Source: Candidatus Korobacteraceae bacterium (lineage in GTDB: Bacteria > Acidobacteriota > Terriglobia > Terriglobales > Acidobacteriaceae). From it: a stretch of 64,000 nucleotides of DNA. Shown here piece by piece: positions 13,936-18,074 of this stretch. The stretch spans positions 3,399 to 67,398 of the forward strand of contig JBEKQP010000001.1 in assembly GCA_049519595.1 (NCBI GenBank). The letters run 5' to 3'. The translations under genes were made by a program, and so were the position numbers. The notes below the pieces were generated by a model, which was not told where the DNA came from, made no database searches, and saw only the letters and a program-made list of their open reading frames with translations. Positions within the stretch are counted from its first letter, which is position 1. Every line of letters begins with the position of its first letter.

Positions 13936-15282
13936 ATGACCTACCCTGATGAGCAGTCATCCTCGAAAGCTCTGTATCAGCGTGCAAGGCGCAGTTTACC
14001 GGGAGGGAACACCCGCAGCATCGTCTACATGAGCCCATATCCCATTTATGCCGTTCGCGGCTGCGGCTGCCGTGTCTGGGACCGGGATAACGTGTCGCGG
14101 ATCGACTGTCTTAATAACTTCACTTCCCTTATTCATGGTCACGCCCACCCTGAAGTGACCCGAGCCGTCTGCGAGCAGGTGAGCATGGGTTCGGCGTTTG
14201 GATTACCCACGGAATCCGAAGTCGAACTCGCGGAATTGCTATGCCAGCGCGTCGCATCCATCGAGAAACTTGTCTTCAATAACTCGGGCACAGAAGCCGT
14301 AATGATGGCCATCAGGGCAGCACGCGCCTTCACGGGCAGGCAAAAGATTGCAAAGGTCGAAGGCGCATATCACGGATCATACGATTATGCGGAGGTGAGC
14401 CTCGATCCCAGTCCAGAGACTTGGGGCGATCCGCCGTCCTCGTTGCCATACGCACGCGGCATACCCACGCCAGTACTGAACGATGTTGTCACGATCCCGT
14501 TTAACAACTGTGCCAAGAGCGAAGGGCTCATCAGAAAGCAAGGTTCAGAACTTGCGGCTGTGCTCATTGACCCAATGCCAAATCGCGTGGGTCTGATACC
14601 TGCCGATCAGGATTATTTGCGAATGCTTCGTCGCGTTACCACCGACATTGGTGCCGTGCTTGTTTTTGACGAAGTTATCAGCTTTCGACTCGGGTACAAC
14701 GGAACTCAAGCAATCTGGGGCACGCAGGCTGACATCACTGCCATGGGGAAAGTCATTGGCGGAGGATTTCCGGTTGGAGCAGTTGGCGGGCGTAGTGAGA
14801 TCATGGCCTTGTTCGACGCCAGTAAAGCAAAGCCGGCAATTCCCGTCGAGGGTACTTACTGTGGCAATCCCGTAACGATGCGGGCAGGGCTGGCCACGAT
14901 GCGCCTGCTGGATCAATCGGCATTCACAAAGCTCAATAAAATGGGTGATCAGGTCCGCAGCGGAATAGCCGAGGCGTTCCGCCATTTAGGTGTGGTTGGT
15001 CAGGTGGTTGGTGCTGGGTCACTGCTGAGGGTGCATTTTACCGATCGCTCACTGCGGGATTATCGTTCCGCTTTCCCGAGCAAAGAAGAAGCAGACATGC
15101 TTGCCACATTTCATCGCAATCTTCTGAACCGAGGCATCTTGGCTGCGCGATCTGGGATGATGGCGCTCTCAACAGCAATGACCGACGACGAGATTGCGGA
15201 GATCGTCGAAGCCGCCAGTGGTGCGATCCAAGCGGTTGCTGGACGGCATTTGACGAGGCACGTTACGGCGCAATCATCGTAG
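13936..15282 (+). CDS. class-III PLP aminotransferase, glutamate-1-semialdehyde aminomutase-like paralogue
   Basis: NSGTEAVMMAIRAARAFTGR, VFDEVISFRLGY, and the PLP-Lys region TAMGKVIGGGFPVGAVGG. LPGGNTRS replaces the HemL-type PGGVNSPVR, so I do not call it hemL. Confidence 0.85.
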   Translation: MTYPDEQSSSKALYQRARRSLPGGNTRSIVYMSPYPIYAVRGCGCRVWDRDNVSRIDCLNNFTSLIHGHAHPEVTRAVCEQVSMGSAFGLPTESEVELAELLCQRVASIEKLVFNNSGTEAVMMAIRAARAFTGRQKIAKVEGAYHGSYDYAEVSLDPSPETWGDPPSSLPYARGIPTPVLNDVVTIPFNNCAKSEGLIRKQGSELAAVLIDPMPNRVGLIPADQDYLRMLRRVTTDIGAVLVFDEVISFRLGYNGTQAIWGTQADITAMGKVIGGGFPVGAVGGRSEIMALFDASKAKPAIPVEGTYCGNPVTMRAGLATMRLLDQSAFTKLNKMGDQVRSGIAEAFRHLGVVGQVVGAGSLLRVHFTDRSLRDYRSAFPSKEEADMLATFHRNLLNRGILAARSGMMALSTAMTDDEIAEIVEAASGAIQAVAGRHLTRHVTAQSS

Positions 15283-15394
15283 TCGGGTGCCGCCCGGTGG
15301 AGATGGACTGTTGATAAATCGCCTTATCAACAGTTACGGTCGAGGCGGGTTGGCTAGTCCACCCCGCGAGCCTTTGCGCAGGGTGGGCGTCGAT

Positions 15395-16069
15395 CTACTC
15401 CGTATGTTTCTTTGCGTCTTCCAGGATGCGCTCAGCCCGCGCCGGATTGTAAATGCCGCAAGAGCAGAAGTGAGTCAGATACTTCGCCGCCTGTTCCGGT
15501 GTACGGCGGCCTTCCTTCACCCAATCGACCATCTTGTGCGCCAGATTAGCGCTGACCATGCCGTGACCGCACATAGTCGTCAGCATCAGCACCTGCGTAT
15601 TCGGCAGCTTCTCGGTCTGACCCTCGAAACCGAGTGAGTAGGAGAGACTATGCCGCGGTTGGCCGGCAGCGCAGGAACATGCCATCGCGTTTTCCAGCGA
15701 GGTCGACATGTTGACGCACAGCCCAAGGTCGGCTTCCTTGACCTCTTTGAGAAACTTCTCGGCTGCTTCCAGGTTATTGAGCACGACCACGGCATTGGTC
15801 GGAGCATCGATGCCGTCAATCACGGTGCGGTATTCCAGCTCCATGCCGCGACTCCAGTGCGCGCTGGGCGTCAGTTCTTTGGGCCGCAGCGCTCCGCCGT
15901 GCGCGGAATCGCCCAGGTTCACGGGATTGTATTTGAGCGCCATTTCCAGGAAGCGCTTTAGTTTGGGCACGCAGTTCTTGTCGTTCTTGCCCCGGCTCGT
16001 ACGGGCAAAGATCACGATATCGTCGCGGAAGCTTTCGCTGCTGCCAAAGCGATGAAGTGTATTAGTCAT
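15395..16069 (-). CDS. Cys-rich hypothetical protein (no family recognised)
   Basis: 224-aa ORF with ACSCAAG, TTMCGHGM and HFCSCG motifs. It overlaps the upstream ferredoxin-like gene by 8 nt. Confidence 0.7.
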   Translation of the reverse strand: MTNTLHRFGSSESFRDDIVIFARTSRGKNDKNCVPKLKRFLEMALKYNPVNLGDSAHGGALRPKELTPSAHWSRGMELEYRTVIDGIDAPTNAVVVLNNLEAAEKFLKEVKEADLGLCVNMSTSLENAMACSCAAGQPRHSLSYSLGFEGQTEKLPNTQVLMLTTMCGHGMVSANLAHKMVDWVKEGRRTPEQAAKYLTHFCSCGIYNPARAERILEDAKKHTE

Positions 16070-16898
16070 GGGCTGCTCCTGCCTTTAGTGCCTCGGGGTT
16101 CGTTATGCGGCCAAGTCCGAAGTTTGTCTTGGCGCGGATCAATTTGAAACCTAGTCGCTGCAGGATGGGTGCCACGTCATTCTCTTCGCCATTGTCGTCG
16201 CAGCGCACCCCGGTCGCGATTGCGACCACGGTCTTCACCTGCTTCTCGACCTCGCGAACCACCCCGAGAATCTCTTCCAGGCGGTCGATCTTAACCAGAA
16301 CTTCAATGATGGCCGAGAGTATCTTCTCATTGAGAATCTCCGGCTGAAGGGCGCCAGTCGAAGGGTCTGGCATGAGCGTGGTGACGGGATTGTTCTTCTC
16401 GAAAGCCACGCCAATCTTGGCCAGCGCCATCGTCATCTTCTGGATGTCGTACATGCGAACCCCAACGCCGGGGCGGCCGAGTTCGATGGTGAAGTTAACC
16501 TCACCGCGTTTCACCCGTCCGGTCAGGTCGTTGGTCTTGACTTCTTCTGTCCCGCGGCCGCGGACCCCGGTCGATTCGTGCGGCACCAGCGGGTCAGAGA
16601 ACGCGCGCCGTATCTGGCGCGGCCATGTCAGCTCGTCGGGCGTCAGCGCAGAAGTTGGACAAACGTCGGGTTCGGGATCGAAGCGCAGACGCGCCATCTT
16701 GAACAAGCGGCGCACCAGCCTCACTACCGTGGGGTTGAGGTGCTCCTTGCTCATGCCGTTGTAACAGCTATAGCATTCCACGCATTCGTCACTCTCCACG
16801 GTCGCCCGGTTAATCGCCTGGTCGACGTAGATCGCGCCCATTGGACACACATAAGTGCAGTTGCCGCAGGCCACGCATTTTTTCTGGTCTATGATCAC
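16062..16898 (-). CDS. 2x[4Fe-4S] ferredoxin-domain protein with an unrecognised 170-aa C-terminal domain
   Basis: CVACGNCTYVCP and CVECYSC...DVCP cluster motifs at the N-terminus. Confidence 0.8.
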   Translation of the reverse strand: MIIDQKKCVACGNCTYVCPMGAIYVDQAINRATVESDECVECYSCYNGMSKEHLNPTVVRLVRRLFKMARLRFDPEPDVCPTSALTPDELTWPRQIRRAFSDPLVPHESTGVRGRGTEEVKTNDLTGRVKRGEVNFTIELGRPGVGVRMYDIQKMTMALAKIGVAFEKNNPVTTLMPDPSTGALQPEILNEKILSAIIEVLVKIDRLEEILGVVREVEKQVKTVVAIATGVRCDDNGEENDVAPILQRLGFKLIRAKTNFGLGRITNPEALKAGAAHD

Positions 16899-17058
16899 AA
16901 TTGGACCTCACACACTACCAACCACTTGTTCCTTGACACTCCAGTATCGACGACAATCTAGCGGATGGAACTTTATAAAATTGTCGCAAATACCACACCA
17001 AAGTACAAGCTGAAACCGCCTTCGCAAGCCATCTCCGCAGCCATCGATCACGTCAAGG

Positions 17059-17074
17059 TGTGACGCCGATCACT
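17059..17074. promoter_or_regulatory. near-consensus CRP/FNR-family box TGTGA-CGCCGA-TCACT
   Basis: Read directly. Lies in the divergent region between the ferredoxin operon (start 16898, minus strand) and the Crp-family gene (start 17373, plus strand). Confidence 0.45.
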
Positions 17075-17372: not shown

Positions 17373-18074
17373 ATGCCGACCAGCACGCGCGATTTCGAAA
17401 AGACGCTAAGAGGCGCTCCGCTGTTTGCGGGGCTTACGGATGCGCAGTTCAATGTACTGGCATCGCGGCTCGTCGAGCGCAACTTCAACGCCGGAGAGAT
17501 GATCTTTCAAGAGGGCCAGCCTTGCGCCGGAATGTTTATCATCCAGTCGGGGAGCGTGAGAATCTTCAAGAATTCTTCTACTGGCCGCGAACAGGTACTC
17601 TCGATCGAAGGTGCGGGAGCATCAATTGCCGAACTCCCCGTGTTCGACGGCGGCGCCTATCCTGCCTCCTCGCAGACGCTCGTCAGGAGCAGCCTGCTCT
17701 TTCTCAGCAAGCAAGATTTTCACGCTCTTTGCATGCGACACCCGGAAGTCTCGCTCAAGGTTTTAGCCAAAGTCGGTGCAAGGCTGCGGCAGTTGGTTGG
17801 CATCATCGAGGATCTCTCGTTCACCACCGTGCGCCATCGTCTTGCCGCGCTGCTCTTGCGGATGGCGCGCGCGGAGGGCCGCCAGACGCCCGCCGGAACC
17901 GAAATCGTTCTTGCTGCCTCCAATCAGGATATCGCCGCGCAAATCGGAACCGTTCGCGAACTTGTCTCGCGCAATCTCAGCCGCTTCCAAAGTGAAGGCC
18001 TGCTTCACCTCGACGGAAGAACCGTGCTCATTCCCAACCTCGACCGCCTTGAACAGGAGATCGGCGAACCGTAG
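17373..18074 (+). CDS. Crp/Fnr-family transcriptional regulator (no N-terminal Cys cluster)
   Basis: cNMP-binding fold (GEMIFQEGQPCAGMFIIQSGSVRI) and HTH (SNQDIAAQIGTVRELVSRNLSRFQSEG). Confidence 0.9.
   Translation: MPTSTRDFEKTLRGAPLFAGLTDAQFNVLASRLVERNFNAGEMIFQEGQPCAGMFIIQSGSVRIFKNSSTGREQVLSIEGAGASIAELPVFDGGAYPASSQTLVRSSLLFLSKQDFHALCMRHPEVSLKVLAKVGARLRQLVGIIEDLSFTTVRHRLAALLLRMARAEGRQTPAGTEIVLAASNQDIAAQIGTVRELVSRNLSRFQSEGLLHLDGRTVLIPNLDRLEQEIGEP

Follow-up and report, generated by a model that had tools for sequence, protein, structure and literature searches.

The DNA analysed here, called the window below, is a stretch of 64,000 nucleotides of contig JBEKQP010000001.1 from Candidatus Korobacteraceae bacterium, and its subject is a pair of overlapping genes, A and B, carried by the minus strand. 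A encodes a ferredoxin-fusion protein and B a partner of no recognised family that bears a site of three cysteines and one histidine (Cys3-His). The reading that is favoured, to which about an even chance of being right is given, is that A and B would constitute an undescribed two-subunit cytoplasmic iron-sulphur (Fe-S) oxidoreductase, whose substrate, a carboxylic acid taken up by an importer, would probably be a hydroxy-, oxo- or sugar acid. The preliminary description of this DNA had proposed either a dedicated electron-transfer couple or a small redox enzyme. The redox enzyme fits better and the dedicated carrier less well, because the pairs occur, in anaerobes, in multiple, tandem copies that are accompanied by their own transporter and by dehydrogenases, and because many polar residues other than the cluster ligands are invariant.

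Both open reading frames were found as the two-gene operon with an 8-nt overlap that had been claimed (Table 1), and all the motifs quoted for their products are present, namely CVACGNCTYVCP and CVECYSC...C-P in A, and ACSCAAG, TTMCGHGM and HFCSCG in B. The overlap is consistent with translational coupling of the two genes. A GAGG Shine-Dalgarno sequence lies about 8 nt 5' of the GTG of gene A, in a start region that is kept, in an alignment of the upstream DNA, in the two nearest relatives of the window locus (L012 and L013, which display 85–88% DNA identity and partial synteny with it), and GGAG is found 8 nt ahead of the ATG of gene B. Among 66 acidobacterial A-B loci, 44 have their stop and start codons overlapping by 4 nt and 2 by 8 nt.

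The pairing is conserved far beyond this genome, as a neighbourhood analysis revealed. Homologues, counted in a collection of 5.8 billion proteins, number 4168 for B and 5253 for A; the B family corresponds to 658 clusters at 50% identity, and a B orthologue is present in at least 583 species-representative genomes. Eighty of the loci obtained, all from Acidobacteriota, were surveyed, and A lies directly 5' of B in 66 of the 75 loci that have room for it. Furthermore, paralogous pairs are found in anaerobic Bacillota and Thermodesulfobacteriota, the A-then-B order also holding in 40 anaerobe pairs. In the phylum of Desulfitibacter, the B paralogue (B') was detected in 28 of 401 sampled genomes, in up to 7 copies that often form tandem pairs. 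The densest array seen belongs to a Thermodesulfobacteriota metagenome-assembled genome (MAG; L145, JBFLWU010000052.1, 42-11294): it contains four A-B pairs in 12 kb, interleaved with genes for an amidase, TctCBA, an ApbA-type reductase and GntR-FCD and GAF-ANTAR regulators.

Of the 201 genomes sampled within the class of the window, 42 possess B, including 24 of the 28 from one family, and none of the 28 other genomes sampled from the family to which the window is assigned does. A count of 2/301 obtained for its own phylum had first raised a suspicion of mis-binning or horizontal transfer; in the light of the class sample, it mostly reflects sampling across classes. Completeness amounts to 83% and contamination to 5% for the bin, the placement of which, or of contig C1, may need checking.

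The N-terminal part of A is a ferredoxin domain, as had been proposed from its two cluster motifs. Its eight cysteines (C8, C11, C14 and C18, then C39, C42, C45 and C80) are invariant in 38/38 sequences, and both motifs end with Cys-Pro (C18-P and C80-P). Several 4Fe-4S dicluster families of Pfam match A above their gathering cut-offs (Fer4_10, 35.8 versus 25.5 bits; Fer4, 34.8 versus 21.1; Fer4_7, 33.5 versus 27) and cover its residues 1–50 only, NCBIfam giving nothing but sub-threshold ferredoxin-domain matches. The domain carries the ligands for two [4Fe-4S] clusters, whose binding is predicted. The long insert noticed in the second motif does exist, as 34 residues separate CVECYSC from C-P. 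However, it is not a feature of the whole family: it corresponds to a 29-aa helical insert ahead of the last ferredoxin cysteine that is confined to the acidobacterial clade, the gap being of 5 residues in the anaerobe clade.

The remainder of A is a cysteine-free domain, previously described as unassignable, for which no Pfam, NCBIfam or PDB relative was found over its ~190 aa. It includes about 45 invariant positions, with the motifs WPR..R..FS.P...H..T...GRGTEE.K, E.GRPG.G, FE..NP and KTN.GLG, and its fold is predicted to be an alpha/beta sandwich in the AlphaFold2 model of A (pLDDT 80.1, pTM 0.76).

The AlphaFold2 model of B is very confident (pLDDT 93.8, pTM 0.91) and displays an N-terminal alpha/beta sandwich followed by a C-terminal helical domain, which bears C167-G-H169 and C202-x-C204. 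In an alignment of 87 diverse B sequences, R7, C167, G168, C202 and C204 are present in all the members, H169, D17 and N208 in 86 and H6 and H140 in 83, R211 being conserved too. Three cysteine pairs had been announced for this protein. The three motifs are present, but TTMCGHGM contains a single cysteine, and a cysteine around position 131/132, i.e. in the ACSC region, occurs in only 62 of the 87 members; moreover, four members hold three cysteines in all. As C167, C202 and C204 are the only cysteines kept in all 87 sequences, with H169 in 86, the universal site of B is Cys3 plus His and not a set of three pairs.

The genomic contexts show that genes for carboxylate importers (ACS-type MFS, TctABC and TRAP) and for NAD-dependent hydroxy-acid dehydrogenases accompany the pair. 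In 42 of the 66 acidobacterial loci, the gene located directly 5' of A, in the same orientation, encodes an MFS protein, its best match being the ACS/D-galactonate-type subfamily, below the curated cut-off. The genes found 3' of the acidobacterial pairs vary (amidohydrolase in 16 loci, O-methyltransferase in 7, PQQ dehydrogenase in 7), and a second acidobacterial arrangement comprises cupins, lactonases and a PQQ/cytochrome c sugar dehydrogenase, these identities being read from the sequence and not confirmed by Pfam. TctC/TctA genes adjoin the pair in 13 of 20 anaerobe regions. The other neighbours in anaerobes include Zn-ADH, GntR-FCD regulators, CitA-type kinases, TRAP DctP, FAH and PdxA-like enzymes, and also beta-hydroxyacid dehydrogenase, M20 peptidase and tungsten aldehyde:ferredoxin oxidoreductase (AOR). 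PrpR_N sigma-54 activators, Ldh_2 and ApbA enzymes are encoded near the pair as well. In two genomes (G326:C1:306000-346000, with loci L125 and L126, and G523:C11, with loci L127 and L128), four A-B pairs lie within 40 kb beside a tungsten AOR; these regions also carry TRAP and TTT transporters and Zn-ADH, as well as MoaD-type and ThiF/MobB-type neighbours read from the sequence and not from Pfam. Such an arrangement hints at a link between the pair and a ferredoxin-dependent reduction of acids to aldehydes.

The statement that no catalytic partner is evident holds for the window locus, but not for a paralogue carried by the same genome. Indeed, a second pair (A' and B', 46% and 42% identical to A and B, respectively) is found on contig C17, in a string of genes (L010:6668-12602, minus strand) that encodes Ldh_2, A', B', a CooF-like Fer4_11 protein (179 aa, E = 4e-19), a Prismane/carbon monoxide dehydrogenase (CODH)-family protein of 436 aa and a Pyr_redox_2 oxidoreductase. 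The 436-aa protein aligns to CODH-IV (6elq) via blocks that bear the C-cluster motifs. Judging from its sequence, the CooS-like protein of the pair-bearing operons corresponds to the "mini-CooS" described in Thermosinus carboxydivorans (Techtmann 2012, PMC3328121; Inoue 2022, PMC8776680), for which these papers name cooF alone as a neighbour. A genomic-context survey of CODH published in 2026 left out clades G and H (PMC13056359) and, as far as the searchable literature goes, the association of A and B with mini-CooS is not described. The relatives of A' are found in strict anaerobes, and A' is 79–80% identical to Negativicutes proteins, a similarity that suggests either that genes passed between these two groups, Acidobacteriota and Negativicutes, fairly recently or that the contig was assigned to the wrong bin.

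The association is not limited to this contig, since A'-B' is accompanied by CooF, a CooS-like protein of 412–521 aa and an FAD/NAD(P) oxidoreductase (FNOR) in seven of the eight contexts examined, which belong to four lineages: C17, a close relative (L148), Neomoorella (L092), Desulfitibacter (L093), Anaerosporomusa (L094), an Anaerotruncus MAG (L146) and a Negativicutes MAG (L147). As the gene order of these contexts differs between genomes, the association points to a functional link rather than to inherited synteny. In addition, B and a complete CooF are joined in a single reading frame in P0294 (36% identity over 166 aa, E = 3e-30); two other candidate fusions, P0301 and P0442, turned out to be frameshift artefacts.

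The presence of the pair in the mini-CooS operons of this subclade (7/8 contexts) could lead one to suppose that A and B serve, in maturation or in some accessory role, the Ni-Fe-S cluster of this protein or of another metalloenzyme. This is largely excluded by the distribution of the genes. Indeed, no Prismane-family gene (CooS/HCP) was found in five pair-bearing acidobacterial genomes of 5.1–9.9 Mb in which the positive controls were detected, so that the pair must work on its own in these carriers. Most anaerobe copies also have no mini-CooS near them, and it is absent from all the 20 anaerobe regions mentioned above, and neither A nor B displays any similarity to CooC, CooT or CooJ or any NTPase motif in Pfam and NCBIfam searches.

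The same operons bear on another possibility, namely that A-B would be a pure electron-transfer adaptor devoid of any substrate of its own, relaying electrons between other enzymes (CooF/mini-CooS and FNOR, or a dehydrogenase and the ferredoxin pool). The ferredoxin domain of A, the fusion of B to CooF, the location of the genes between mini-CooS and FNOR in several operons and the lack of any recognisable cofactor-binding or catalytic fold would all agree with such a role. However, the ferredoxin domain accounts for just ~85 of the 502 residues of the pair, and the rest is highly conserved, with many invariant charged residues. Furthermore, most copies adjoin only NAD-dependent dehydrogenases, which need no Fe-S relay, and a carrier would not usually occur as 4–7 paralogous pairs in one genome, all of them accompanied by a transporter of their own. 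An adaptor therefore appears clearly unlikely.

Past the ferredoxin domain of A, searches of Pfam, NCBIfam, PADLOC, the PDB (by sequence and by profile) and Foldseek gave no characterised family, in agreement with the earlier view that these proteins belong to unrecognised families. B has no Pfam match and no meaningful NCBIfam match, and no PDB relative was found either by sequence at E <= 10 or by profile; the PDB sequence matches of A were obtained via the ferredoxin motif only. When 87 B and 38 A members were scanned singly against Pfam at E <= 1, Fer4 was the only family to be matched consistently, and a SHOCT-like match in 12 of the 87 B members (best E = 0.022) was taken as noise. A PADLOC match of A to BrxP spans the ferredoxin motif only. 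The profile of the C-terminal domain of A matched PDB 2b8n, a putative glycerate kinase, marginally (E = 0.005, domain E = 0.014, 56 aa); as the invariant motifs of A lie outside the aligned stretch, this match was set down as chance and is kept as a lead only. None of the families with which A or B could be compared was recovered: neither protein matches Fer4_11 (PF13247, four cluster motifs, CooF/HydN-type), and LUD_dom and CCG have no Pfam match in A, B or any aligned member. A BFD-like [2Fe-2S] site (PF04324, CxC...CxxC) in the C-terminal half of B was rejected, as no member of the 87 matched Fer2_BFD at E <= 1 and as the ligand pattern of B, C-G-H...C-x-C, is different. The members from cultured Desulfitibacter, Anaerosporomusa and Neomoorella are recorded publicly as "hypothetical" or "uncharacterized".

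At the structural level, neither model matched a PDB entry at E <= 1e-3 in Foldseek, the best values being 0.006 for A and 0.02 for B, with TM scores on the query of 0.2–0.25. The sole resemblances concern generic beta-alpha-beta-beta-alpha-beta sandwiches (PII, SbtB, ACT, ZipA) and involve the C-terminal domain of A and the N-terminal half of B, two domains for which homology by internal duplication was rejected (hhalign probability 0.9%). As PII, SbtB, ACT and PstA-type proteins are the only fold resemblances (probability 0.8–0.9 for SbtB, TM about 0.5 on the target) and as the pair persistently adjoins transporters, A-B could be imagined as a ligand- or redox-sensing regulator of the adjacent MFS, TTT or TRAP importer, by analogy with GlnK-AmtB and SbtB-SbtA. 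Such a regulator is, however, very improbable. The matches to PII, ACT and SbtB (E from 0.006 to 0.5, the best for B being 0.2) are not significant (E > 0.005, with the low TM scores on the query given above) and concern a very common fold; none of the 87 B and 38 A members matches a P-II or ACT Pfam family; no output or T-loop-like feature was identified; and some mini-CooS contexts include no transporter. Moreover, A and B carry Fe-S ligands, which PII, ACT and SbtB regulators have not, even if they share with them the sandwich folds, at an insignificant Foldseek score, and the vicinity of transporter genes.

The Cys3-His site of B and the metabolic context also lend themselves to a non-redox explanation, in which the pair would be an Fe-S hydro-lyase or isomerase: B would hold a [4Fe-4S] cluster on three cysteines and use the open iron as a Lewis acid, A keeping this cluster reduced or repaired. 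Exactly three cysteines are invariant, four members possess three in total, the build in two subunits recalls TtdAB and SdaAA/AB, and the neighbours point to hydroxy- or sugar acids (FAH, ACS-type MFS, and the lactonases and PQQ sugar dehydrogenases, some of which are read from the sequence and not Pfam-confirmed). However, no likeness in sequence or fold to any Fe-S hydro-lyase family was found, i.e. no Pfam, NCBIfam, PDB or Foldseek match to aconitase, class I fumarase/tartrate dehydratase, L-serine dehydratase or IlvD/Edd. H169 is as invariant as the cysteines and could be a fourth ligand. Furthermore, the strict eight-cysteine ferredoxin domain, the B-CooF fusion and the position between mini-CooS and FNOR speak for electrons passing through the pair. 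A hydro-lyase is on balance rather unlikely.

According to the favoured reading of A-B as an oxidoreductase, the two proteins would form a heterodimer, in which the Cys3-His site of B would bind a redox-active Fe-S cluster located in the active site or beside it. Invariant residues (Arg, Lys, Glu, His and Asn) of the C-terminal domain of A and the N-terminal region of B would surround the substrate, and the two [4Fe-4S] clusters of A would pass electrons between the site of B and an external partner of the ferredoxin type. This partner would be the CooF/mini-CooS/FNOR chain in anaerobes and some general carrier in Acidobacteria. Several points weigh against this reading. The Cys3-His site could bind zinc instead of an Fe-S cluster, and the three invariant cysteines would be just as suitable for a hydro-lyase without redox activity; neither A nor B displays a recognisable fold for the binding of a flavin, a nucleotide or another cofactor; the acidobacterial loci are devoid of a redox partner; and the case for an A-B complex is a genetic one. 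The substrate and the chemistry are predictions from gene context, and the neighbouring enzymes all score below the NCBIfam equivalog cut-offs, so that no known pathway can be named.

Comparison with known systems would place A-B among the ferredoxin-fused Fe-S enzymes of organic-acid metabolism. The first 85 residues of A, with their two Cys4 motifs, resemble the clostridial-type 2x[4Fe-4S] domains fused to enzymes, such as those of PorD, AprB and LutB of the LutABC lactate utilisation system. The resemblance to LutB extends to the fusion of the ferredoxin domain to a larger domain, the organic-acid context and the presence of a Cys-rich partner alongside. However, unlike in LutB and POR, the C-terminal 190 residues of A match no LUD, POR or other family and, unlike in LutABC, the partner contains no CCG or other known Cys-rich domain, and the second motif of A has its 29-aa insert in the acidobacterial clade. 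The pair of contig C17 and its relatives recall the CooS-CooF-FNOR modules, in which a Ni-CODH goes with a CooF polyferredoxin and an FAD/NAD(P) oxidoreductase, since their operons also encode a Fer4_11 CooF, a protein resembling CooS and a Pyr_redox_2 reductase, but the window pair has none of these partners.

[4Fe-4S] clusters held by three cysteines are found in aconitase-type enzymes, in serine and tartrate dehydratases and in the reductive dehydroxylases IspG and IspH, both of which take electron input of the ferredoxin type, while 4-hydroxybutyryl-CoA dehydratase uses three cysteines and a histidine. B resembles these enzymes by its three invariant cysteines and its histidine, its hydroxy-acid context and its input of the ferredoxin type, but it is similar to none of them in sequence or structure. 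The chance that A-B represents a new enzyme class is substantial. More specifically, it is possible, if doubtful, that the pair founds a class of Fe-S enzymes with a Cys3-His cluster in a fold without solved relative, wired via a 2x[4Fe-4S] domain and devoted to the redox chemistry of hydroxy- and oxo-carboxylates, for example a ferredoxin-dependent reductive dehydroxylation or a flavin-free dehydrogenation.

About 400 of the 500 residues of the pair belong to no Pfam, NCBIfam or PDB family, and yet the pair is abundant in soil Acidobacteria. In soils and anoxic habitats, it probably stands for a step of carboxylate turnover that has gone unrecognised and that matters quantitatively. The association with mini-CooS, CooF and FNOR also provides a testable handle on mini-CooS, which has had no assigned function since 2012: if A-B were indeed a new class wired via CooF to mini-CooS, the role of the latter would be to couple CO/CO2 or NAD(P)H redox to the conversion of organic acids. 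With two small, soluble subunits and a confident model of B, biochemical and structural work should be straightforward.

Table 1. Features of the A-B locus of the window (positions in the 64,000-nucleotide stretch; ".", no strand).
Feature	Position	Strand	Description
Gene A	16062..16898	-	Open reading frame with GTG start, 278 aa, ferredoxin-fusion protein
Ferredoxin domain of A (N-terminal, 2x[4Fe-4S])	16644..16898	-	aa 1 to ~85; Pfam Fer4 families
C-terminal domain of A	16065..16643	-	aa ~86-278, ~190 aa, without Cys
Gene B	15395..16069	-	Open reading frame with ATG start, 224 aa
A/B overlap ATGACTAA	16062..16069	-	8 nt, stop of A and start of B
Conserved upstream element, TATTTGCGACAAT ... 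AGTTCC.CCGCTA.ATTGTCGT.GAT	16946..16996	-	Shared by the window, L012 and L013
CRP/FNR-type palindrome TGTGACGCCGATCACT	17059..17074	.	One mismatch; between A and the divergent Crp gene
Crp/Fnr-family regulator	17373..18074	+	Pfam cNMP_binding and HTH_Crp_2; divergent from A
Class-III aminotransferase	13936..15282	+	Convergent with gene B

Upstream of A, the CRP-type box and the divergent Crp-family regulator that had been noticed are both present, and L012 carries a perfect box (TGTGACGAAACTCACA) at the aligned position, beside the same divergent Crp gene. However, the window contains 4 such sites for 1.5 expected, a number reached by 4 of 100 shuffles, so that the box alone is not beyond chance. 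The Crp gene lies beside the pair in only one of the 80 related loci (L012), which rules out Crp as a general regulator of the pair, and L013 possesses neither the Crp gene nor the box. As both are confined to the window and L012, Crp control would be a recent and lineage-specific addition; in this lineage, the operon would have come newly under the divergent Crp-family regulator via a TGTGA-N6-TCAC(A/T) box.

A scan for promoters and terminators gave nothing above the shuffled background. The conserved upstream element listed in Table 1 (~50 nt) includes a 7-bp inverted repeat, CGACAAT/ATTGTCG, and is kept in L013 although this locus lacks the Crp gene, so that its presence is independent of the Crp box. 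It is a candidate for a promoter, an operator or a 5' leader.

On the other side of the pair, the aminotransferase resembles glutamate-1-semialdehyde aminomutase (357 bits for a HemL cut-off of 398). It was rejected as a functional partner and is regarded as unlinked to the pair, because it is missing at this place in L012, L013 and all the 80 loci; its presence looks like a recent insertion in the window or a deletion in L012 and L013. Between the aminotransferase gene and gene B, positions 15308-15333 form a perfect 10-bp inverted repeat, CTGTTGATAA-ATCGCC-TTATCAACAG, which has no T-run and was missed by the terminator scan. This repeat could be a bidirectional terminator, a hairpin involved in RNA stability or a protein-binding site.

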